Of a stretch of 64,000 nucleotides of DNA, positions 5,117-28,977 are shown in pieces (the first letter of the stretch is position 1; every line of letters starts with the position of its first letter). This stretch comes from an uncultured Gammaproteobacteria bacterium (GTDB lineage: Bacteria > Pseudomonadota > Gammaproteobacteria > Steroidobacterales > MnTg04): positions 7,385 to 71,384 of the forward strand of contig CAZMOM010000015.1 in assembly GCA_964568075.1 (NCBI GenBank), in the 5' to 3' direction. Under the pieces are notes generated by a model. The model searched no databases, was not told the DNA's origin, and saw nothing but the letters and a program-made list of their open reading frames with translations. The position numbers were made by a program, and so were the translations under genes.

Positions 5117-5735
5117 GTAAATCAACCTCAGGTAGTAGTCTTGTATTCACTGGTTGAGTCAGCGATGTATAAACATCGTGAAATGCTCTGCGGGCTCTTG
5201 CGAGCATCGATTGCACCGCTTCTTCTCCGATCCCCAGTTTTGCCGCGATTTCTCTGATCGAATAACCCTCGATGTATTTCCACTCCAGCGCATCGCCATA
5301 TCTTGCAGGCAGCCGATCGAGAGCCACATGAATCATCCGGACGAGCTCCAGCCTCTCCATATTCCATGCCGGATCATCGGTGGGCGGCGTCTGGAAGGAA
5401 TCCACTGCGGCCTGAATCTCGGGAAAGTCCTCCGTCAGTAAAATATGCTTGTGGTATCGGCCCTGCGTTTCCAGCCAGTCGCTGATTTCATTCCTGCAGA
5501 TGGCGCATAGCCACGTGAACAAGGCAGCTTCACCCCGAAACTTTTGCAGGTTGCGGATCGCCTTGGTCATTGCCGAACTGACCACTTCCTTGCATGCTTC
5601 CGGTTCGCCGGAAACCCGGGTGGACGCAAATCGGTACAGGCGCTGAAAGTTCTCCGTGAAGAACTGATCGAATGCCCGTTGCTCATTCGCCAACATTCGT
5701 TTAACGAGCCGTTTGTCCTCGAGATAAAGAAGCAT
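5109..5735 (-). CDS. ECF-type RNA polymerase sigma-70 factor (FecI-like)
   Basis: Sigma-70 region 2 and region 4 signatures (..FTWLCAICRNEI.., ..YIEGYSIREIAAKLGIGEEAVQSML..). ATG at 5735 has AGGA 8 nt upstream; an alternative GTG lies at 5774. Confidence 0.85.
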   Translation of the reverse strand: MLLYLEDKRLVKRMLANEQRAFDQFFTENFQRLYRFASTRVSGEPEACKEVVSSAMTKAIRNLQKFRGEAALFTWLCAICRNEISDWLETQGRYHKHILLTEDFPEIQAAVDSFQTPPTDDPAWNMERLELVRMIHVALDRLPARYGDALEWKYIEGYSIREIAAKLGIGEEAVQSMLARARRAFHDVYTSLTQPVNTRLLPEVDLHE

Positions 5736-5930
5736 GGTCGATCCTGAATCCGCCTCTTTGTTAGACGGCGGCACGTTCGAATATCGGTCGGCCCAGAGCT
5801 GTATCCAATGGCCTTACTACTATAATTTGCGGCAACGCCACAAAGCGGTCAGAACAATTGACTGCCGAGGCCATCACCCGCCGACCCGGAGCACCGGCCG
5901 GCCACTTTCCCGGTCCCGCCGCCGGATGAG

Positions 5931-6317
5931 CTAGTTAAACAGGACCCATATCGCGCCAAGCAAACCGCCAAGCAGCAATATCGATTGTGATATCTGCCCG
6001 ATAGCGAACCCAAGCCCTCTCCCGGACGGTTCCCGAAGATAGGCGCGATAGTAAATAATCCGGGCAATCACGAACAATATACCCAGACCGGCAGCTGTCG
6101 GTTCATGAACATAAAAAGCGAACAGCCACATGGCTGGCAGAAAGACAATTAACTGCTCCAGCGTATTTTGTTGTACGCGGCTGGTCCTTTCGAACTCAGG
6201 CGCACCCTGCATGGCCGGAGCCTTCACGCCGGTCTTCTCTCTCGCCACGCCAACCAGGAAGGATATAATCCAATATTCGATCAAAATAAGACCGGTAACG
6301 ATGGCCACAACATCCAT
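5931..6317 (-). CDS. MAPEG-family membrane protein
   Basis: 128 aa with 3-4 TM helices and a conserved core (..QNTLEQLIVFLPAMWLF.., ..RIIYYRAY..) typical of the MAPEG/MGST-like family. Confidence 0.75.
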   Translation of the reverse strand: MDVVAIVTGLILIEYWIISFLVGVAREKTGVKAPAMQGAPEFERTSRVQQNTLEQLIVFLPAMWLFAFYVHEPTAAGLGILFVIARIIYYRAYLREPSGRGLGFAIGQISQSILLLGGLLGAIWVLFN

Positions 6318-6408: not shown

Positions 6409-8592
6409 GTGCCGTGCTGGTCAAGCTGCCCGTGGGGCAGGTATTATTCGCACTCCCTCAAAGCATCAGGCATAGCATTTGTGAGCTCGGATTCAGCACA
6501 AGAAGCATCGGTTTGTTCCGACGACAGTATTGACCCCGCTTTTGACTGGCTGGAAATAGCCCGCCTGGTACTGACCTCGCGGGCCATAGATCGGATCGAG
6601 GAAAGCGAGCTCGTCCCGCAAAAGAAAGTGCTTTATCAATTCTCTGCGCGCGGCCACGACCTGGCCGAGATTCTGCTGGGCTCATTAATGAACCACCCGC
6701 ATGACGCGAGCAGCGGTTATTACCGATCCAGACCATCGCTCCTGGCGATGGGCCTGTCGATCGAGGAAGCGTTCGCCGGCCCATTGGCCCGCTCCGGCGG
6801 ATTCAGCGATGGCCGCGACATCGGTGTTGTTTTCAACCGCCCAACGGCAGGCGGCGCCACGGTACTGCCGATGTGCGGCGGTGTCGGGGCACAGTACACG
6901 CCGGTCGCCGGCTGGGCGCAGGCGATTCGGTATCACGCAGATGAACTGGGTGACGATAGCTACCAGGGTGCGATCGGCGCTGCCCTCGGTGGTGACGCAT
7001 CGGTAGCAACCAATGGTTTCTGGTCGGCGCTGACGATCGCGACCACGCTGAAATTGCCGATGCTGTTCTATATCGAGGACAACGATTATGGCATCTCGAC
7101 ACCATCGACGTTGCAAACGCCAGGGGCAAATATAGCGGACAACCTAAAGTCCTTTAATAACTTGAGCGTTCTGGACGGCGATGGCACAGAGCCAGCCGAG
7201 GCGGCCGGTCTGATACGCCAGGCGGTCGCTCACGTACGCAGCGGTGCCGGCCCGGCCCTGCTGAGGCTTTCCGTGCCCCGGCTGGGCGGCCATTCGGCGC
7301 AGGACACGCAGAAATACAAGTCCGCCGAGATTATCGCGGAAGAAGAGTCTCGTGATCCCCTGCCAAAACTGCATGACTACCTGGTGCCGGCGTTGATCGA
7401 TGCGGACACTTGGAAAAAACTGGAGCAGGATGTCGAGCGGGAGGTCGCCGAGGGGCTCGCGGCGGCACTTGCGAGAGCCCAGCCCGATACCGCCGGGATT
7501 GAGCGGCATGCTTTTTGTGAAACCGGACCGGATAGCGAACCCGAAATCCAGCAACAAGGTGGCCTGGCCGTCAGCGGCCATGTTTTTCCTGAGTCCAGCG
7601 AGCAGGCGGAACCCGAGCCTGCGCGAATCAACATGCTGACGGCAATCCGCCGTACGCTTGAATATGAACTGGCAACCAACCCGAAAGTCGTTGTCTTCGG
7701 CGAAGACGTCGGACCCAAAGGCGGTGTGCATGCAGCGACGAGGGGTCTGCAGGAAAAATTCGGTATCAATCGGGTTTTCGATACCAGCCTTTCGGAAGAA
7801 GGCATCATCGGTCGCGCCGTTGGTATGGCGGTAGCCGGCCTGATGCCGGTACCGGAGATTCAGTTTCGCAAGTATGCCGACCCGGCAACAGAGCAACTGA
7901 ATGATTGCGGTACAATGAGATGGCGGACCAATAATCGATTCGCCGCCCCGATCGTCGTCAGAATGCCCGGCGGTTTTTTCAAATGCGGCGATCCCTGGCA
8001 CAGCCAGACCAATGAAGTGCAATGGGCGCACGGCATCGGCTGGCAGGTGGCCGTGCCGTCTAACGCTGAGGATGCGACCGGGCTGCTGCGCACAGCGTTG
8101 CGCGGCAATAATCCGACCATTTTTTTTGAGCACCGTTCCATGCTGGACGACGTGTGGGCGCGCCGGCCCTATCCCGGAGACAAATATGTCCTGCCATTCG
8201 GCAAGGCAAGGATCACCAAACCGGGTACGGACCTGACCGTGGTGACCTGGGGCGCGATGGTGCCTCGATGTGAGAGCGCGGCTGAAACAGTTGCTGGAAG
8301 CGTGGAGATTATTGACCTGCGCACGATGATGCCATGGGATAAGAAAACCGTGCTGGCCTCGATCGCGAAGACGAGGCGTTGCCTGGTCGTACACGAGGAC
8401 AACATGACCGCCGGTTTTGGCGCGGAGATAGTCGCGACCGTGGTCAGCGAATCTTTTTTCGACCTCGACGCGCCAGTTGAGAGAGTGGCAACGCCGGATA
8501 TACCCAGTCCACACAATCCGTCGTTGATGAATGCGGTGGTTCCGGATGCAGCTGGAATAGCCGGAAAAATGACCGAGCTGCTTGAGTGCTGA
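6409..8592 (+). CDS. 2-oxoacid dehydrogenase E1 component, fused alpha+beta subunits (TPP-dependent)
   Basis: The N-terminal half resembles E1 alpha (..YQFSARGHD.., ..GDASVATNGFWSAL..LPMLFYIEDNDYGIS..). The C-terminal half resembles E1 beta (..VVVFGEDVG.KGGV..TRGLQEKFG..RVFDT.LSEEGIIG..). The start is uncertain: GTG 6409 or GTG 6481. Confidence 0.85.
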   Translation: MPCWSSCPWGRYYSHSLKASGIAFVSSDSAQEASVCSDDSIDPAFDWLEIARLVLTSRAIDRIEESELVPQKKVLYQFSARGHDLAEILLGSLMNHPHDASSGYYRSRPSLLAMGLSIEEAFAGPLARSGGFSDGRDIGVVFNRPTAGGATVLPMCGGVGAQYTPVAGWAQAIRYHADELGDDSYQGAIGAALGGDASVATNGFWSALTIATTLKLPMLFYIEDNDYGISTPSTLQTPGANIADNLKSFNNLSVLDGDGTEPAEAAGLIRQAVAHVRSGAGPALLRLSVPRLGGHSAQDTQKYKSAEIIAEEESRDPLPKLHDYLVPALIDADTWKKLEQDVEREVAEGLAAALARAQPDTAGIERHAFCETGPDSEPEIQQQGGLAVSGHVFPESSEQAEPEPARINMLTAIRRTLEYELATNPKVVVFGEDVGPKGGVHAATRGLQEKFGINRVFDTSLSEEGIIGRAVGMAVAGLMPVPEIQFRKYADPATEQLNDCGTMRWRTNNRFAAPIVVRMPGGFFKCGDPWHSQTNEVQWAHGIGWQVAVPSNAEDATGLLRTALRGNNPTIFFEHRSMLDDVWARRPYPGDKYVLPFGKARITKPGTDLTVVTWGAMVPRCESAAETVAGSVEIIDLRTMMPWDKKTVLASIAKTRRCLVVHEDNMTAGFGAEIVATVVSESFFDLDAPVERVATPDIPSPHNPSLMNAVVPDAAGIAGKMTELLEC

Positions 8593-8606: not shown

Positions 8607-9797
8607 ATGGCGGAACTGATCGACATCGTCGTGCCCGAAGGCCAGCAGGAGGGAACCGAATCGACGCTGATGCAATGGCTCAAAAAGGCCGGAGACAGGG
8701 TGAATTTGCACGAGCCCTTGATCGAACTGGAAACCGACAAGGTCGTCGTTGAGATCGCCTCGCCCGCCAGCGGAATATTGCTGGAGCGACTGGTCGAAGA
8801 ACAAAGCCAGGTAGAGCCTGGTGCCGTATTGGGCCGTATTGAGCCCGGCAAAGGGGCGAAGGCTGACAGCGGCGAGGCAAAAGACTCGGCCAAAGCCAGT
8901 CAGAGCGACCGGCCACCAGAAGGCAAGCACGCAAAACTCAGCCCGGCCGTACGCCGGCTGCTCAAGCAGCACGGCCTGGACGCCTCACAGATTGTGGGCA
9001 GCGGCCGCGATGGTCGCGTGACCCGCGAAGACGTCGAAAACCACATCGCGGGTGGTGCGACAGTCGTTGCCGGTGACCAGGACCGCATCGCGGCAGCTGT
9101 AAAAGGATCGATCGTGCCGCATTCCCCAATGCGCAAACGCATCGCGACTCACATGGTAAAAAGCATGCGGACCGCACCCCATGTGACCAGCGTGTTCCAG
9201 GTCGACATGTCGGCGGTTAGCGCTCATCGCAAATCCCATCGCAACGCGTTTGAGAAAAAAGGCGGCAAACTGACTTTCACCGCCTACTTCGTGAAAGCCG
9301 CCGTGGCGGCACTGCAGTCGGTGCCCGAGGTTAACAGCCGATTCCTCGATGAGGGACTGGAACTATTCGGTTCAATCAATATCGGCGTCGGCACCGCGTT
9401 GGGTGACGAAGGCCTGATCGTGCCGGTTATCCACGGCGCGCAGGACATGGATCTCGGGCTTATTGCCAAAAGGCTACAGACGCTGACCGACAAAGCACGC
9501 AAGGGCGACCTCGATCAATCCGATGTTGCCGGCGGAACCTTCACGATTTCAAATCATGGCGTCAGCGGCAGCCTGATGGCGGCACCCGTCATTATCAACC
9601 AGCCGCAGAGTGCGATCCTCGGGATCGGCAAGCTGGAAAAGCGCGTTGTCGTCGTTGAAGACGGAGACCAGGACCGAATGGAGATCCGGCTGATGTGCTA
9701 TGTCACATTAACCATAGATCATCGCGCGCTGGATGCTCATCAGACCAACCGGTTCCTGTCCGTTTTTGCCGAAACCTTGGAGAACTGGCCCGGCTGA
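8607..9797 (+). CDS. dihydrolipoamide acyltransferase E2 component
   Basis: Lipoyl domain with ELETDKVVVEI, a peripheral subunit-binding domain (SPAVRRLLKQHGLDASQIVGSGRDGRVTRED) and a catalytic domain with DHRALDA. Starts 15 nt after E1. Confidence 0.9.
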   Translation: MAELIDIVVPEGQQEGTESTLMQWLKKAGDRVNLHEPLIELETDKVVVEIASPASGILLERLVEEQSQVEPGAVLGRIEPGKGAKADSGEAKDSAKASQSDRPPEGKHAKLSPAVRRLLKQHGLDASQIVGSGRDGRVTREDVENHIAGGATVVAGDQDRIAAAVKGSIVPHSPMRKRIATHMVKSMRTAPHVTSVFQVDMSAVSAHRKSHRNAFEKKGGKLTFTAYFVKAAVAALQSVPEVNSRFLDEGLELFGSINIGVGTALGDEGLIVPVIHGAQDMDLGLIAKRLQTLTDKARKGDLDQSDVAGGTFTISNHGVSGSLMAAPVIINQPQSAILGIGKLEKRVVVVEDGDQDRMEIRLMCYVTLTIDHRALDAHQTNRFLSVFAETLENWPG

Positions 9798-23197: not shown

Positions 23198-24871
23198 ATG
23201 TTCAAGTCATTAAGAAATAACCGCTTACTGCCGCTGGCAGCGATATCGGCGGTCTTATGTCTAATGTTACTGACATCCGCTCCCGCAGGCGCCCAGCCCG
23301 TGGAAAGCGATGAGCCTGACCACGTGGTCCTCAACGATGCGGGCGACGAAGTGGCGCCAGGCATGGGCCTTGGACTGGAGGACCCCTTTACGGCTGAGGA
23401 GCTGACCAACCTGGTCGCTCCGGTCGCCCTTTACCCGGACGATCTGCTGGCGATCGTGCTGCCGGCATCCACCTATCCGCTGCAAATAGTGCAGGCCGCA
23501 CGATTCCTCGATGAATTCGAAAACGACAGTTCGCTGAAGCCCGACGAAGACTGGGACGAATCGGTGATTGCCCTGCTCAACTATCCTGAAGTCATCGATT
23601 TATTGAACAGCGATCTGGAATGGACCTGGCAGCTCGGCGAGGCCGTGATTAACCAGGAAACGGAAGTTATCGAGGCCGTCGAAGCGTTTCGCGATCGTGC
23701 GATGCTCGCCGGTAATCTGAAAACCGACGAACACCAGATCGTCAGCGAGGAGGACGGAACCATAGAAATCACTCCTGCGGAGGCGGAAGTGATCTATGTT
23801 CCTTATTACGAACCGGAACGAGTGGTCGTATATCAGCCGTATCCGGTCTACCACTACTATCCCAGGCCTTACCCGCTCTATTACTACCCGTATCCGGTCG
23901 GCTATCACTTTAGCTCCGGTTTCTTCTGGGGAATTACCACCGCCTTTACGATCGGCTGGCATTCGCATCACCTGAATGTGCACTTCTGGGATTACTACAG
24001 CCATCCGTACTACGGGCACACCTACTATCGCAGTCATCATTACTATCACTGGCCGTCGCGTCACTACGGTGGACACCGGTATGCAGGGGACCCACGGCAC
24101 GATGGCGATCATTGGCGACCGAACCGCCGGCATGGCGCCAGGCCCGATCACCGGAGCCCGAGGTTTGACCGCGGTGGCAATGATTTCGTCGCGACATCCG
24201 GTGGCTCGAGAATCGGACGGCCAGGCACGTTCAAACCGCGTCCCGGATTTCGCGGAAAGATCATCAACGCCGTCAATACTCGTTACGAAGGCGCAGACTT
24301 CAGGACGAACGTCAGACCCGCCGTACGGACGACCCGAGACGCCAGGAGACCTGCTCGGCGCGATGCGGTCTGGAAATACAATGCGACACCGAAATCGGAT
24401 TTTGTTCCGCGAAACAGTCGGTCGTCTGGCAAAGTCAGGCGCAGCCGCCCGGACCGGGACCAGGTGACGCGTGACAGTAGCCGCGAGCCGGTCGTTCAGA
24501 ACAGGTCACGCGGCAACCGCGTAAGCCGATCGGCCGTGCCGACAAATCAAGGCCGGCCTGTGAACCGGTCCGACCGCAGATACACAGTGCGGACCAGTCG
24601 GCCGGACTCTGTGGCGAGCGATCGGTCGCGCGGCAGACGTGCCGATGCCGGGGCAAATTCTAGCGGTCGTGTGGCAAGACCCTCACCGCCGCCAAGGCAG
24701 GCCAGGCCCGCCAGCCGGCCGTCCCAAAGCCGGGCGCCGGAAAGCAGGCCCTCGCCTGCTGCAAGCAGGCCCACGCCGCCGCCGCGATCTGAGAGGGGGC
24801 GGAGCGAGAAACACGCCGACCAGAAGGGAACGCGACGCAACGACCGGGGACGAAGCCGCGCGAGAAATTAG
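23198..24871 (+). CDS. DUF3300-family secreted protein with Tyr/His/Pro-rich core and Arg/Ser/Pro-rich tail
   Basis: Signal peptide; DUF3300-like ..LVAPVALYPDDLLAIVLPASTYPLQIVQAARF..; then low-complexity regions. Confidence 0.8.
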   Translation: MFKSLRNNRLLPLAAISAVLCLMLLTSAPAGAQPVESDEPDHVVLNDAGDEVAPGMGLGLEDPFTAEELTNLVAPVALYPDDLLAIVLPASTYPLQIVQAARFLDEFENDSSLKPDEDWDESVIALLNYPEVIDLLNSDLEWTWQLGEAVINQETEVIEAVEAFRDRAMLAGNLKTDEHQIVSEEDGTIEITPAEAEVIYVPYYEPERVVVYQPYPVYHYYPRPYPLYYYPYPVGYHFSSGFFWGITTAFTIGWHSHHLNVHFWDYYSHPYYGHTYYRSHHYYHWPSRHYGGHRYAGDPRHDGDHWRPNRRHGARPDHRSPRFDRGGNDFVATSGGSRIGRPGTFKPRPGFRGKIINAVNTRYEGADFRTNVRPAVRTTRDARRPARRDAVWKYNATPKSDFVPRNSRSSGKVRRSRPDRDQVTRDSSREPVVQNRSRGNRVSRSAVPTNQGRPVNRSDRRYTVRTSRPDSVASDRSRGRRADAGANSSGRVARPSPPPRQARPASRPSQSRAPESRPSPAASRPTPPPRSERGRSEKHADQKGTRRNDRGRSRARN

Positions 24872-24909
24872 CTGGCAGGGAAGGAAACGCCGCGACGGAT
24901 TGCGGCAAT

Positions 24910-24935
24910 AAAAAGGCCCCTGACGGGGCCTTTTT
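24910..24935. terminator. bidirectional rho-independent terminator
   Basis: AAAAA-GGCCCC-TGAC-GGGGCC-TTTTT, a perfect 6-bp GC stem flanked by an A-run and a T-run, between convergent genes ending at 24871 (+) and 24998 (-). Confidence 0.85.
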
Positions 24936-24997
24936 GTTTGGTGGCCCGGGGCAGATTTTCACTACCTCCGCGCCGCTGTTACGGGTGCGGTCTTTCG

Positions 24998-25420
24998 TCA
25001 GCAGCCGGCGGTACAGCTAGCCAATTCCGCGTCTGCCGTATCCATGCAGCCCTGCAAACTCGATTGATACAGATCCACACACCAGCTTTGTCCACCGCAG
25101 AGTGTGACTCCGGAGTCGAAAGCTGCCTGACATGCCTCGGCGTCGCCGTCGTGACTGGCCTGGCAGTCGGATTCACAGGTCGAAGGCGTCGGGCCCGGGT
25201 CTTCTCCGCCGCCAGACGTATCACCATTCATGCAGCTCTTTTTGGCGTCTTTTGCAGCCACCAGACAGGAAGCCAAAGCGCCACCGTTTAAACTTAAACC
25301 GTGACAACCTTTGACGGCGACCTGGTGCATCGCGTTACACTCGTGCGATCCCGCCTGTGCCGACATCGACAATGTCATCGACAAAGCGAATGCGAATAAA
25401 AGGGAAATAAAGCGTTTCAT
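24998..25420 (-). CDS. secreted 12-cysteine miniprotein (predicted disulfide-stapled helical hairpins)
   Basis: ATG at 25420 with GAGG 9 nt upstream. Signal peptide MKRFISLLFAFALSMTLSMSAQA. There are 12 Cys with regular spacing. The upstream part of the 210-aa ORF-track frame is rejected. Confidence 0.65.
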   Translation of the reverse strand: MKRFISLLFAFALSMTLSMSAQAGSHECNAMHQVAVKGCHGLSLNGGALASCLVAAKDAKKSCMNGDTSGGGEDPGPTPSTCESDCQASHDGDAEACQAAFDSGVTLCGGQSWCVDLYQSSLQGCMDTADAELASCTAGC

Positions 25421-25492
25421 AACTTGGCACCTCATAAAAGCTCGATTTGGGATATAAGTATCAGGTTTTCGGTGGGTGTGATTCTGTGAAGA

Positions 25493-25517
25493 AAGTCTCA
25501 ATTCACAGGCCATTCGT
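25493..25517. promoter_or_regulatory. perfect 7-bp inverted repeat CTGTGAA-N11-TTCACAG upstream of the Cys-rich gene (candidate operator)
   Basis: Read directly from the sequence. A third TTCACA half-site lies at 25526-25531. The repeat sits 73-97 bp upstream of the ATG at 25420. Confidence 0.35.
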
Positions 25518-25755
25518 TTCACATAATTCGTTTTGGAGCCAAAAAAGCCGCGCACCGGCAAGATGACGCATTTTTTCGCAATTTTATGTCCCCGGACACC
25601 GGTCGATGCGTGCAATGGACAATCAGACAAAACTGTTAACCACAGACTCGCTACGCGCCTGGATCAGCAGAAAAAAACGGGGCTAAGCCGGAAATCCACA
25701 GGAAATAAGGGCGGAACCTGCCAGGGGCGGCTCCAGAACAATGTCGTCAAACGTC

Positions 25756-27870
25756 TCAGTTTACCGGTGGGCAGGTCCGACCGGCCGGGCAGAACGCCGC
25801 ATCCTTGTCAAATCCCGTTGAATGTGTGTGGCAAGCCGCCGTGCAGGTTTTCCCGTTGTTATGGGTGTTACTCAGGTCATCGTTTTGATGATTACTCGTT
25901 TGCGTATGACAGGTCTCGCACGGGCCATCCATCCAGCCGTCATTATCCTCGTCCGTGTTGGTAAAGGAGTGTGTGTAATCGCTGAGGAAATTAGTGTCGT
26001 TATTATCGGTACCCCTGGATTCGAAAACGACCGGTCGCAGGCTGCCCGTGGACTGAATTGTTCCACCGCTGAGATAAGCCGGCACGCCGGCCAATGAACA
26101 ACCGGGTTGTCCAATGTCGTTGCGGAAAACCGGCGGACAGCGAACGGTAACGATCGGAAGCAGAGAAGACTCAACTTCCCACCGTCCGTTATAGCCATCA
26201 GGACTGGCGCCAAACACGGTAATAATGTCACCGTCGTGAATCCCGGCAGTTGCGACTTGAAACTGATTGATATTGCTGTTGTTGTTGGTCAGAGTGATTT
26301 CAAGAACCGGCGGTGGCCCAACCTCACCACTACCAATATACGTTCCGGGGTCAATATCGACTCCCCGGTAGGTCAGTGTGGTGGCACCGACGCCGTTAAC
26401 GGTAAACACGCCGTTGTAACCTGCCGGATCAATACCGGAAACGGATATAAGGTCATTGATCGCAATCGTGTGAACAACCCCAAAGGTCAGCTCAATCTCA
26501 CCGATGACTTCTGGACCGCCTTTGACATCGGCCCAGGCGGCGTCGGTAACCACAATTGGTGGCGGGTCAGGCGGGGTGACGACCGCCATGCTCTGCACGG
26601 TTTTGACCGAACCGAGGTATTCGACCAGGCCACCAGCCACATTGTTGGTACCTGGATCTGATGCGTCATAGGTAACTTCCGATCTCGTTGGAAGCGCGAT
26701 AGCACCGTTGGTGGTGTACGACCCGGGATCGCTTGGTAGAGAGTAGGAGACATCAAGGCCACTCACGACCGTGACCGTAAAGCGGCCGTTAAAACTTCCC
26801 GGTCCGGCGCTGATGACATCCGATACGACAATCGCATCGCCTCCCTCAAGCAAGTGATTTTCAGCCAGGGTCACGGTTGCAGTGTCTACGGACCAAAAGG
26901 CCGTGGTGATGCCGGTATTGGAAACGGCGGTAATCGTCTTCAGGCCATTAAAAGTGTCTAAATTTGTTTCGGAGACGCCGGTTACGTTGATCGTATCGCC
27001 GACCCGAATCGAAAAGGCATCATGCAGGCTCAACGTCGCGGTGCCGGGGGTGCCAGGCGCCCAGCTTGCGAGCCTGACCTTTGGCCGCTCATGCCAACCG
27101 GTGGATCTGACGAAAGCGAACACACTACTTATATCGGTTGGGTCTGACGATGGCGGCGTGTATGTCGCCGTTATCGGATCCGGATCATCGAAGCACACCC
27201 AACCCGTGGGCGGGTTCGCCTGAAAACCGTTCCAGTCGGTTTCCTTGACCCGGAACTCGCCATCGAACTCGTCATTCGAATTATTGATAATGAGCCGATC
27301 ACCAATCATGATCGACATCAGCGGGCCGTCACCGGCATTAAAGCGAGGCATGGCGATCTGGAGATCGGTGTTGCTATTCGGGCAGGAGGCCGAGGGCCCC
27401 ACACCGATAATTCTTAATGGGGTCGCTACCTTGGCAACACCCGTACCATCCTCGTCGCGCCCAAACAACTTGATGTTGATTCCATCGACCGCGGTGGTCA
27501 CATCGCCGCCAAGGGAGTGCGCATGCGGGGTGCCGCCGTCATAAAGGTGGTTAACCGTATCACCAGGATGTTGCGTATGGCAGACCACGCAACCCATCTC
27601 CCACTTGGGAGTACCGGTGCTGCCGCTGGCCAGGTTGACTGCCGGGTCCACATGCCGGTCGGTAAATTTGGCGGTGCCGGCAGGACCGTGACAGGAATCG
27701 CAAATCAGGTCGAATTCTGCGTTGGTATTCAATGTGCCGCCGGGCGAATTGTGGAGACTGTGACAAAAAACGCAATCCATGGTTTGCCCCAGGCTACTTC
27801 TCGGCACGAAGACAAGCACGACGGCAGCAAGGGCCAAAAGCAGAATATATACAGTGAGCCGCAGTTTCAT
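25756..27870 (-). CDS. secreted multihaem c-type cytochrome with five internal beta-module repeats
   Basis: Signal peptide; CxxCH at aa 33-37, 57-61, 94-98 and 651-655, plus CxxxCH at aa 676-681. Five GD-x-I-x-V...[FY][ND]G repeats lie between aa ~185 and 570. The start overlaps the NHL gene stop (ATGA). Confidence 0.85.
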   Translation of the reverse strand: MKLRLTVYILLLALAAVVLVFVPRSSLGQTMDCVFCHSLHNSPGGTLNTNAEFDLICDSCHGPAGTAKFTDRHVDPAVNLASGSTGTPKWEMGCVVCHTQHPGDTVNHLYDGGTPHAHSLGGDVTTAVDGINIKLFGRDEDGTGVAKVATPLRIIGVGPSASCPNSNTDLQIAMPRFNAGDGPLMSIMIGDRLIINNSNDEFDGEFRVKETDWNGFQANPPTGWVCFDDPDPITATYTPPSSDPTDISSVFAFVRSTGWHERPKVRLASWAPGTPGTATLSLHDAFSIRVGDTINVTGVSETNLDTFNGLKTITAVSNTGITTAFWSVDTATVTLAENHLLEGGDAIVVSDVISAGPGSFNGRFTVTVVSGLDVSYSLPSDPGSYTTNGAIALPTRSEVTYDASDPGTNNVAGGLVEYLGSVKTVQSMAVVTPPDPPPIVVTDAAWADVKGGPEVIGEIELTFGVVHTIAINDLISVSGIDPAGYNGVFTVNGVGATTLTYRGVDIDPGTYIGSGEVGPPPVLEITLTNNNSNINQFQVATAGIHDGDIITVFGASPDGYNGRWEVESSLLPIVTVRCPPVFRNDIGQPGCSLAGVPAYLSGGTIQSTGSLRPVVFESRGTDNNDTNFLSDYTHSFTNTDEDNDGWMDGPCETCHTQTSNHQNDDLSNTHNNGKTCTAACHTHSTGFDKDAAFCPAGRTCPPVN

Positions 27871-28760
27871 GGAGCCAATCCCTGGTTTTCAAATACTTCC
27901 AGTCGACGATTGCGGTTATTGGTCACATGAAGATCGCCGGTCTTACTATCCATAATCAGATCAAGCGGAAGCATCAGCTGCCCCGGACCTTTGCCGATTT
28001 GCCCTATGGTGTTAACGCCTTTTTGCGTTTCCCGATCGAAAACCAGAACCTGGCCAAGCAAACTGTCAACCAGGTAAATCAGGCCCTTTGAATCGACGGT
28101 CAGACCCTGTGGCCGTGAGAAATTGAAATCGCCGACACAGGCAAACCAGCCACACCCGGCCGAACCGTTGATACTCGCCTTAAAGAACCCATCGAAATCG
28201 TAGATGTTGACTGTCCCCGTCGGATTCTGCGGGTCGCCGAAATCACTGACCAGTACCTCTCCCCGGGTCGGGTCCACGGCAATTCCTGTTGGCCGGTAAA
28301 GTGGTATCTGACCGGCTGCCGGCAGAGACCGCAATAATTCTCCGCCTTTGTCGAACACCCAAACCTTCGCCGTTGCCGAGTCACTGACAAAAATCAGTCC
28401 CAGTTTTTTATCTATTGCGATATCGGACGGACGAGCAATATGAAAACTCTCTCCACCGAGGATATATTGGAGACGACCGTTTCTGCTCAGAACATCGACG
28501 GATTGCGTGACTTCATTACCAACAAAAAACCTGCCCCAGCCAAAAGCTACGCTGACTGGTCGTCCGGGAACGCTGATCAGGGTGTCCTCTTTCCTCGGGT
28601 TGGGACTGATCACCACCAGCGCCTGGCGTTTGGAGTCGACTACGACGACGCTGCCCGAAGGCATTTGAGTGATTCGCGTCGGTGACAGAAAGGTTTGTGC
28701 CGTCACGGGCAAGGCGACAAACGAGCAAAGCAAGGCCAGCACCAGGATTCGGGCAGGCAT
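27867..28760 (-). CDS. NHL-repeat six-bladed beta-propeller protein (secreted)
   Basis: ATG at 28760 gives the signal peptide MPARILVLALLCSFVALPVTAQT. Repeated NHL-like blades follow (..GLIFVSDSATAKVWVFD.., ..GEVLVSDFG.., ..GLIYLVDSLLGQVLVFD.., ..GDLHVTNNRNRRLEVFE..). Confidence 0.8.
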   Translation of the reverse strand: MPARILVLALLCSFVALPVTAQTFLSPTRITQMPSGSVVVVDSKRQALVVISPNPRKEDTLISVPGRPVSVAFGWGRFFVGNEVTQSVDVLSRNGRLQYILGGESFHIARPSDIAIDKKLGLIFVSDSATAKVWVFDKGGELLRSLPAAGQIPLYRPTGIAVDPTRGEVLVSDFGDPQNPTGTVNIYDFDGFFKASINGSAGCGWFACVGDFNFSRPQGLTVDSKGLIYLVDSLLGQVLVFDRETQKGVNTIGQIGKGPGQLMLPLDLIMDSKTGDLHVTNNRNRRLEVFENQGLAP

Positions 28761-28977
28761 GGTTTTGCAACGACCCGGCAGTCGCCGACCGCGATGGAAA
28801 ACGGAGAAACTGATTATTGGTTCCTGCGATGTTGACATAATACAAAGCCGCCCGGCGTCCATTTTGTCGAGCCTGTTTCCCTAAGTCTGACAGGCTCCTC
28901 GGCTTATTTGTACCAGCAAAAGCAGGTTTTTTCTGTACGTGAAAGCCGAGATAAAATGTGTGCTAACCGCGTTCCGC

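Follow-up and report, generated by a model that had tools for sequence, protein, structure and literature searches.

CHCH or twin Cx9C proteins are built as a helix-turn-helix with two cysteines on each helix and two nested disulfides (PMC12114033). Among CHCH proteins, Cx10C is a rare variant, represented by COA6/COX6B. Alpha-hairpinins follow the motif CX3C-X4–20-CX3C (4C) or CX3CX3C-X4–20-CX3CX3C (6C) (PMC11591084), while the copper storage proteins (Csps) are four-helix bundles whose core is lined with dense, reduced cysteines and which are either cytosolic or exported by twin-arginine translocation (Tat) (PMC5171941). In this study we analysed a 64,000-nucleotide stretch of DNA from an uncultured Gammaproteobacteria bacterium, hereafter the window (positions 7,385 to 71,384 of contig CAZMOM010000015.1, assembly GCA_964568075.1), and describe one gene in it that encodes a cysteine-rich precursor of 140 amino acids (aa). 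The coding sequence is complete and lies on the minus strand at 24998..25420, with its ATG at 25420–25418 and its stop codon at 25000–24998. The mature miniprotein carries twelve cysteines and is predicted to form two helical hairpins, which are likely closed by nested disulfides.

Cysteine spacing, predicted fold and family

Translation of the minus strand from 25420 to 24998 gave the precursor MKRFISLLFAFALSMTLSMSAQA, the signal peptide, followed by GSHEC...TAGC and the stop. By inspection, residues 1–23 (25352..25420, minus strand) form a Sec-type signal peptide with an n-region MKR, a hydrophobic core and an AQA motif, and both a twin arginine and a lipobox are absent. The general features of the Sec-exported class, an n-h-c signal with an AxA site and an even number of cysteines in the mature protein, were likewise found by inspection, which supports the export signal proposed in a preliminary description of this DNA. 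The mature protein of ~117 aa has a net charge of −11 and an isoelectric point of 4.25. Its cysteines occupy precursor positions 28, 39, 52, 63, 82, 86, 97, 108, 114, 125, 136 and 140, with gaps of 10, 12, 10, 18, 3, 10, 10, 5, 10, 10 and 3 residues, and the final residue is cysteine; the translation thus reproduces exactly the spacing of twelve cysteines that had been described after the signal peptide. A lipoprotein was rejected because there is no lipobox. Binding of an Fe-S cluster or haem was also rejected, given the lack of CxxCH and the Sec route, with which pre-assembled clusters are incompatible.

The mature chain divides into two cysteine modules, both on the minus strand. The N module (residues 28–63, 25232..25339) has the pattern C-x10-C-x12-C-x10-C and is a predicted hairpin with rungs C28–C63 and C39–C52. 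A Gly/Pro/acidic linker (residues 64–81, 25178..25231), predicted to be disordered, leads to the C module (residues 82–140, 25001..25177), whose pattern is C-x3-C-x10-C-x10-C-x5-C-x10-C-x10-C-x3-C and which is predicted to form a long hairpin with rungs C82–C140, C86–C136, C97–C125 and C108–C114.

The structure of the window protein was predicted with AlphaFold2 (AF2) from a 15-sequence family alignment, with model residue 1 corresponding to A23 of the precursor. The model contained four helices forming two hairpins, with a mean predicted local distance difference test (pLDDT) of 80.3, a predicted template-modelling score (pTM) of 0.52 and a disordered linker between the hairpins (pLDDT <50 at model residues 46–56). 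The helices of the N module spanned residues 3–19 and 25–42 (pLDDT 71–80), and those of the C module residues 59–86 and 90–116 (pLDDT about 95). The cysteines fall at model positions 6, 17, 30 and 41 and at 60, 64, 75, 86, 92, 103, 114 and 118, and paired positions add up to a constant in each module, with 6+41 = 17+30 = 47 in the N module and 60+118 = 64+114 = 75+103 = 86+92 = 178 in the C module. Equal i+j sums are the register expected for antiparallel helices in which each cysteine faces its partner, and a ladder in this register must therefore look mirror-symmetric in sequence. AF2 of a homologue that is only ~30% identical (P0010, an x18/x8 variant) gave the same four-helix architecture, with sums of 99/99 in the N module and 214/214/214/212 in the C module. 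Across 19 aligned modules, the conserved non-cysteine core lies at +4/+8 from the cysteines (Y/H12, V/A16, F/Y/W23, A51 and L/F55 in module numbering). Such a 0/+4/+8/+11 hendecad core is a requirement of two straight, tightly packed helices, and it agrees with the model independently of AF2. Foldseek searches of two models against the PDB, and of the window model against BFVD, returned no match with E below 0.9.

At the level of prediction, these results support well two helical hairpins with two and four nested cysteine rungs. The preliminary description had proposed just this arrangement, and it now finds support from AF2 in both the window protein and a distant homologue, with facing cysteines at constant i+j. 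The disulfides and their connectivity we infer, and we consider a nested disulfide ladder likely. The periplasm is the compartment where DsbA acts, and a ladder is favoured because the chain would enter this compartment unfolded through Sec, because its cysteines are sparse and come in sets of 4 or 8, and because nothing matches Csp.

The family is small. About 20 homologues turned up among billions of proteins, at identities of 25–45%, and the full set of 12 cysteines is retained in them. An exhaustive HMMER search returned 8 proteins at E ≤ 0.001 among 1.84 billion cluster representatives, and a profile search matched 12 clusters among 5.8 billion. Searching genomes with just the window protein as query gave no relative. 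Scans with the subfamily alignment matched three genomes, from Ramlibacter sp. AN1015, an uncultured betaproteobacterium and a Bdellovibrionales metagenome-assembled genome (MAG), and also one metagenome contig, but no viral contig (IMG/VR). Pfam, NCBIfam, PHROGs and PADLOC gave no match for the window protein or for any of the 15 aligned members; in Pfam, no family at E ≤ 10 recurred among these 15, and none matched the window protein. Sequence profiles of the PDB yielded only chance cysteine matches to dendrotoxins (E about 0.01–0.06). The family had gone unrecognised in the preliminary description, and indeed no curated family or solved structure matches. By these searches, the miniprotein belongs to a rare bacterial family that has no curated name.

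Complete members share one plan, in which the signal peptide is followed by an N module of the pattern C-x10-C-x(9–20)-C-x10-C, then by a linker 6–56 residues long, and last by a C module of the pattern C-x3-C-x10-C-x(8 or 10)-C-x(5 or 6)-C-x10-C-x10-C-x3-C. The eight cysteines of the C module were invariant in 19/19 aligned modules and most remaining columns vary freely; the cysteine pattern is therefore a selected feature. The spacing before the turn was x10 in 4/19 C modules and x8 in 15/19, and the turn was x5 in 16/19 and x6 in 3/19. Exact mirror symmetry is, judged from this alignment, a lineage detail and a minority state. The palindrome that had been described is thus exact in the C module of the window and does not extend to a family rule; in the same way, a cysteine as last residue is a trait of the window lineage, since 1–4 residues trail the last cysteine in most family proteins. 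Indels across the family are confined to the hairpin loops and the linker between modules, and the N-module arms are always x10. One homologue (P0006) has the order N+C+C with 20 cysteines, and the modules can be regarded as autonomous because its C module is duplicated.

The most conserved feature other than cysteine is the hairpin tip, [FY]-[DN]-P-x-x-C-G-G-x-x-x-C. Histidine and methionine are not conserved, and the mature proteins range from acidic to neutral (net charge −20 to 0). By inspection, all signals are Sec-type and no family member has a twin-arginine signal; the MKRF...SMSAQA signal of the window protein is kept in P0002, P0005 and L009. Here L009 denotes a more distant syntenic relative of the window, and L001 and L002 are close relatives on short metagenome contigs. 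The linker between the modules is a hotspot of low-complexity expansion: P0005 has repeated GDPGSTGGGG units, and in the L009 miniprotein (5531-6013) the linker has grown to a 56-residue Asp/Ser/Gly tract.

Proposed role and alternative functions

Our best overall explanation, which we hold to be evenly balanced between right and wrong, is that the miniprotein would serve as a Dsb-oxidised, hyperstable binding scaffold in the periplasm or outside the cell. An acidic protein of ~117 aa, built from two autonomous modules, would be exported by Sec. Each module would fold into an antiparallel α-helical hairpin with cysteines at 11-residue (hendecad) steps and a terminal CxxxC, the cysteines of one helix facing those of the other at constant i+j. 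Once in the periplasm, the facing pairs would be oxidised by the Dsb system to give nested ladders of two disulfides in the N module and four in the C module, the innermost of which would close the conserved C-G-G-x-x-x-C tip loop. The product would be a rigid rod resistant to proteases and heat, its C module about 4 nm long, with a solvent-exposed surface free to change on a fixed scaffold. Its most likely role would be that of a hyperstable binder or blocker in the envelope or the surroundings, of an inhibitor, decoy or effector type, with the disulfide-closed tip as a candidate contact site.

The binding role is suggested by a surface that changes quickly while the scaffold stays constant. 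Between the window and L001, the ratio of nonsynonymous to synonymous substitution rates (dN/dS) was 0.62 for the miniprotein, the fastest-evolving gene at the locus, compared with 0.23 for the DUF3300 gene (domain 0.08, tail 0.34) and 0.12 for the C-terminus of the MFS gene. Relative to L009, the neighbouring proteins are 62–87% identical and the miniprotein only about 35–43%. The genomic contexts also vary. An integrase gene lies close by in L003 and L006, with IS66-transposase and reverse-transcriptase genes in addition in L003, and a GmrSD gene occurs in the L004 context. The Bdellovibrionales MAG (L005) carries two tandem paralogues at 7887-8354 and 8772-9179; these adjoin a 1233-aa protein with a weak match to the N-terminal part of the phage T7 tail fibre. 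The miniprotein gene thus appears to be accessory, sporadically distributed and duplicated in places. An accessory binder type is proposed on account of the fixed cysteine scaffold with a fast surface, the sporadic spread, the duplication of modules and genes, and the island contexts.

Several points weigh against this explanation. The AF2 alignments are shallow (11–15 sequences), and with a pLDDT of only 71–80 in the N module and a pTM of about 0.5, the placement of the modules relative to each other is unsupported by the model. The disulfides are a prediction from the AF2 fold and the cysteine register. The dN/dS of 0.62 derives from about 27 substitutions in one pair and may be due to relaxed constraint instead of diversifying selection. 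No partner gene is conserved across the family contexts. A Gram-negative Sec signal takes a protein only to the periplasm. The binding, inhibitor or effector role is argued from analogy; we offer it as a guess that is more doubtful than probable.

A bolder version is also unlikely in our judgement. The family would be the first prokaryotic class of hendecad disulfide-ladder α-hairpins, with up to four nested disulfides per two-helix rod and an origin independent of the CHCH and alpha-hairpinin folds, and its members would act as hypervariable and hyperstable inhibitors or effectors, periplasmic or extracellular, in interbacterial or predator–prey conflict. The family occurs as tandem paralogues in the Bdellovibrionales MAG and in genomic islands elsewhere, and in this version the contact loop would be the disulfide-closed CGGxxxC tip.

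An alternative to the binding scaffold is a cysteine-thiolate metal protein, whose 12 cysteines, kept in the reduced state, would coordinate Cu(I) or a different soft metal, as in the helical, cysteine-lined Csps, and which would serve as a periplasmic buffer or store. The cysteine density of about 10% on α-helices resembles that of Csp1 (13 Cys), the miniprotein is acidic, and two lineages encode a haem protein close by. A CXXXC on a single helix ligates Cu(I) in Csp3 (PMC5171941), and the C module of the miniprotein has a CxxxC at both ends. However, none of the 15 members matches Csp/DUF326 or any other Pfam family, and Foldseek gave a template-modelling score (TM) of 0.25 (E = 5) to apo-Csp1 (5fjd) and 0.24 to Ccsp. 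Exported Csps use Tat (PMC5171941), whereas Sec would deliver the unfolded miniprotein chain into a compartment containing DsbA. Cysteines of the same helix lie 11 residues (about 16 Å) apart, too sparse for a Cu-thiolate core, and the two-helix hairpins are joined by a disordered linker of 6–56 residues and do not form a fixed four-helix bundle. Moreover, histidine and methionine are not conserved, and the cysteines are invariably grouped in fours or eights, with partners at constant i+j. We therefore consider a metal protein unlikely.

Quite unlikely, too, is a role in killing competitors as a secreted toxin or bacteriocin-like peptide, a possibility raised in the preliminary description. 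The miniprotein is indeed small, cysteine-rich, fast-evolving and sporadic, bears a signal peptide, and in some copies lies in islands adjoining integrases. Plant alpha-hairpinins with a CX3C...CX3C hairpin are, in addition, antimicrobial (PMC11591084). Nevertheless, the mature proteins have net charges of −20 to 0, unlike membrane-active cationic peptides, and this acidic to neutral character makes a toxin of the antimicrobial-peptide type improbable. The neighbourhoods have no recurrent immunity gene, dedicated exporter or processing protease, neither PADLOC nor PHROGs gives a match, and no relative was found in IMG/VR. Sec export by itself, furthermore, reaches only the periplasm.

Neighbouring genes and transcription signals

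Upstream of the miniprotein gene and on the same minus strand lie an NHL open reading frame (ORF, 27867–28862) and a cytochrome-like ORF (25756–27870), the latter separated from the miniprotein gene by 335 bp, as the preliminary description had stated. The two upstream genes probably form an operon because the start of the cytochrome gene overlaps the NHL stop by 4 nt. The cytochrome-like protein has 704 aa and a signal peptide, and its four CxxCH motifs (CVFCH, CDSCH, CVVCH and CETCH) occur only close to its two ends, around a middle part of roughly 500 residues. It reached no Pfam or NCBIfam cut-off, the best hit being a weak match to a DmsE-family decahaem protein (E = 1.7e-4), and it is 69% identical in L009.

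A dedicated partnership of the miniprotein with this NHL/multihaem-cytochrome-like pair, as redox shuttle, assembly factor or substrate, had been suggested from their proximity, and the same strand, the short distance of 335 bp and the order MFS–NHL–cytochrome–miniprotein–DUF3300 kept in the divergent L009 speak for it. Comparison of the locus argues the other way. In L001 (92% nucleotide identity), the MFS gene directly precedes the miniprotein upstream region and the 3.1-kb NHL–cytochrome segment is missing; the miniprotein is nevertheless present and 89% identical, with an in-frame two-codon deletion that makes the x12 loop x10. In L002, a remnant of roughly 300 nt at 71% identity is all that is left of the segment, even though the miniprotein is 100% identical to that of the window, with one synonymous change. 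In L001 as in L002, the miniprotein gene is retained together with its 5' region, with an identity of 95–99%. The pair at 25756-28862 is thus polymorphic for presence and absence (compared stretches L001 1-300 and L002 296-600) and is intact in the window and L009. The gene order in L009 is acyltransferase-like–MFS–NHL–cytochrome–miniprotein–DUF3300. As this synteny covers every flanking gene, common descent explains the conservation of the pair; by gene order, the pair is ancestral at the locus. Among the unrelated contexts L003, L004, L005, L006, L007 and L010, there was no CxxCH-rich ORF and no shared neighbour, and the cytochrome/NHL pair is absent from all of them. A terminator-like hairpin and conserved footprints, described below, also separate the cytochrome gene from the miniprotein gene. 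From gene content, the pair is not an obligate partner, and a dedicated partnership is very improbable. We rank a redox or metal link to these neighbours below the binding role. A joint operon of the miniprotein with the pair was rejected on the loss in L001/L002 and the lack of CxxCH-rich ORFs in other contexts, and in annotating the window the miniprotein gene should not be grouped with the cytochrome/NHL unit.

On the other side, a DUF3300 gene (23198-24871, plus strand; Pfam E = 4e-53) encodes a protein with a His/Tyr/Pro-rich middle and, at the C-terminus, a long low-complexity tail very rich in Arg, which has several indels between close relatives. The gene is convergent with that of the acidic miniprotein, and the two have a common terminator in 4/4 syntenic contigs. 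Divergence across the locus is mosaic. Between the window and L002 (region 23198-25660), the synonymous divergence (dS) was 0.011 for the miniprotein and 0.106 for the adjacent DUF3300 gene; against L001, it was 0.59 for the MFS C-terminus and about 0.1 for genes across the indel. Such a pattern hints at recombination, with breakpoints around both the indel and the miniprotein gene.

The 140-aa product is called identically by the NCBI, ENA and Logan gene callers, and its start is fixed by an in-frame stop 17 codons 5' of the ATG in L009. Longer starts (a 210-aa TTG ORF and JGI calls of 187 aa and 205 aa) were rejected because the extension is unconserved and the L009 stop falls inside it; the over-extended JGI calls belong to P0001 and P0019, and the mechanical TTG ORF spans 24998-25630 on the minus strand. 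A Shine-Dalgarno-like GAGGTG, found by reading the sequence, lies 7 nt 5' of the ATG (25428..25433, minus strand); it is the same in L001 and L002, and L009 has GGGAG at a comparable position. Further upstream on the minus strand, footprint comparison revealed the conserved 21-nt block TGATACTTATATCCCAAATCG at 25443..25463, a candidate core promoter or regulator site, which is invariant across the window, L001, L002 and the divergent L009 amid intergenic DNA that is unalignable. An inverted-repeat search and comparison with L009 further revealed the conserved inverted repeat TTATGTGAA...TTCACAGAAT at 25481..25527 (minus strand), a candidate operator whose inner CTGTGAA/TTCACAG pair is restricted to the window lineage and whose outer arms and internal TGAGAC are kept in L009. 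The footprints held in common with L009 (at about 5390-5480 there) are TTATGTGAAAC…TGAGAC…TCACAGAA and TGATACTTATATCCCAAATCG. A promoter scan found no sigma-70 consensus site upstream of the miniprotein gene, and the footprints at 25443-25527 may be the site of some regulator or alternative sigma factor.

Beyond the gene, a putative bidirectional intrinsic terminator AAAAAGGCCCC-TGAC-GGGGCCTTTTT, identified by sequence reading at 24910..24935 (both strands), is shared with the convergent DUF3300 gene and lies 62 nt past the miniprotein stop. Its hairpin is present in the centroid fold, and the 103-nt region has z = -3.1. Rfam gave nothing at gathering score in the window, and near the gene only sub-threshold matches to terminator-like small RNAs. 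A second terminator-like hairpin lies at 25570–25551, between the cytochrome stop and the miniprotein start. Because this hairpin and the conserved footprints stand between the cytochrome gene and the miniprotein gene, we read the latter as most probably a transcription unit of its own. The miniprotein gene is a real gene, given its Shine-Dalgarno sequence, terminator, conserved upstream footprints and in-frame indels. A spurious ORF, whose cysteine pattern would be a chance product of non-coding or antisense DNA, is hardly credible: overlapping ORFs on the opposite strand and the lack of a curated family match could be cited for it, but the signal peptide and all 12 cysteines are kept in homologues at 25–45% identity, indels among relatives are in frame, AF2 is confident on the C module, and a Shine-Dalgarno sequence and terminator are present.

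Comparison with known systems

Compared with the Csps, the miniprotein has some features in common with Csp1/Csp3 (DUF326), which are likewise small helical bacterial proteins with more than 10 helix cysteines, CXXXC included, and with some exported members (PMC5171941). It differs in its two independent predicted hairpins, its sparse 11-residue cysteine spacing and its Sec signals, and the homologue P0006 has three modules as opposed to a single four-helix bundle. No Pfam or NCBIfam match to Csp/DUF326 was found, and the Foldseek scores (TM 0.25 to 5fjd and 0.24 to Ccsp) give no match to the Csp fold either. The best Foldseek superposition of the C module was with the C-terminal domain of the anopheline anti-platelet protein (4okv), with TM 0.77 on the target and a root-mean-square deviation of 2.1 Å over 60 columns; at E = 3 and 13% identity, this match is to a generic two-helix hairpin and gives no evidence of kinship or common function.

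The plant alpha-hairpinins (such as EcAMP1, MBP-1 and VhTI) are helix-loop-helix proteins in which the CX3C motifs of the two helices form nested disulfides as a staple (PMC11591084), and the outermost four cysteines of the C module form a CX3C...CX3C pair like theirs. In the miniprotein, however, 51 residues that include four more cysteines separate the two CX3C motifs, outside the alpha-hairpinin definition. It is also bacterial, acidic (net charge −11), much longer and composed of two modules, whereas the alpha-hairpinins are from plants and usually cationic, and there is no homology between them.

The likeness to the CHCH proteins lies in the N module, which would in effect be a twin Cx10C hairpin with cysteines about three turns apart on each helix. 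Its C1–C4, C2–C3 nesting is predicted from the AF2 hairpin and from the equal sums of cysteine positions. The folding compartments are equivalent, the periplasm here and the intermembrane space there. The differences are that every arm is x10 in the window and all homologues, in place of the x9 of Cx9C, that no CHCH-type Pfam match was obtained for the 15 members, and that the C module is predicted to carry four rungs on 28-residue helices, a design not known from CHCH proteins. Furthermore, the miniprotein is bacterial, with an N-terminal Sec-type signal and presumed Dsb oxidation, in contrast to the Mia40/Erv1-dependent mitochondrial import of CHCH proteins.

The biological significance of the miniprotein is limited for now, as the family is very rare and its role is guessed. 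If the ladder is real, the family would provide a natural, genetically encodable scaffold of about 60 residues with two helices and four regular disulfides, and a surface tolerant of heavy substitution, which would be relevant to protein design and to the engineering of stable binders and inhibitors. Its kind is already known, that of the disulfide-stapled α-hairpin miniproteins; the traits that appear new are the bacterial origin, the Sec export, the hendecad spacing, the predicted ladder of up to four rungs and the two-module build. Bacteria would then have reached the solution of the CHCH proteins and alpha-hairpinins and extended it to four rungs.

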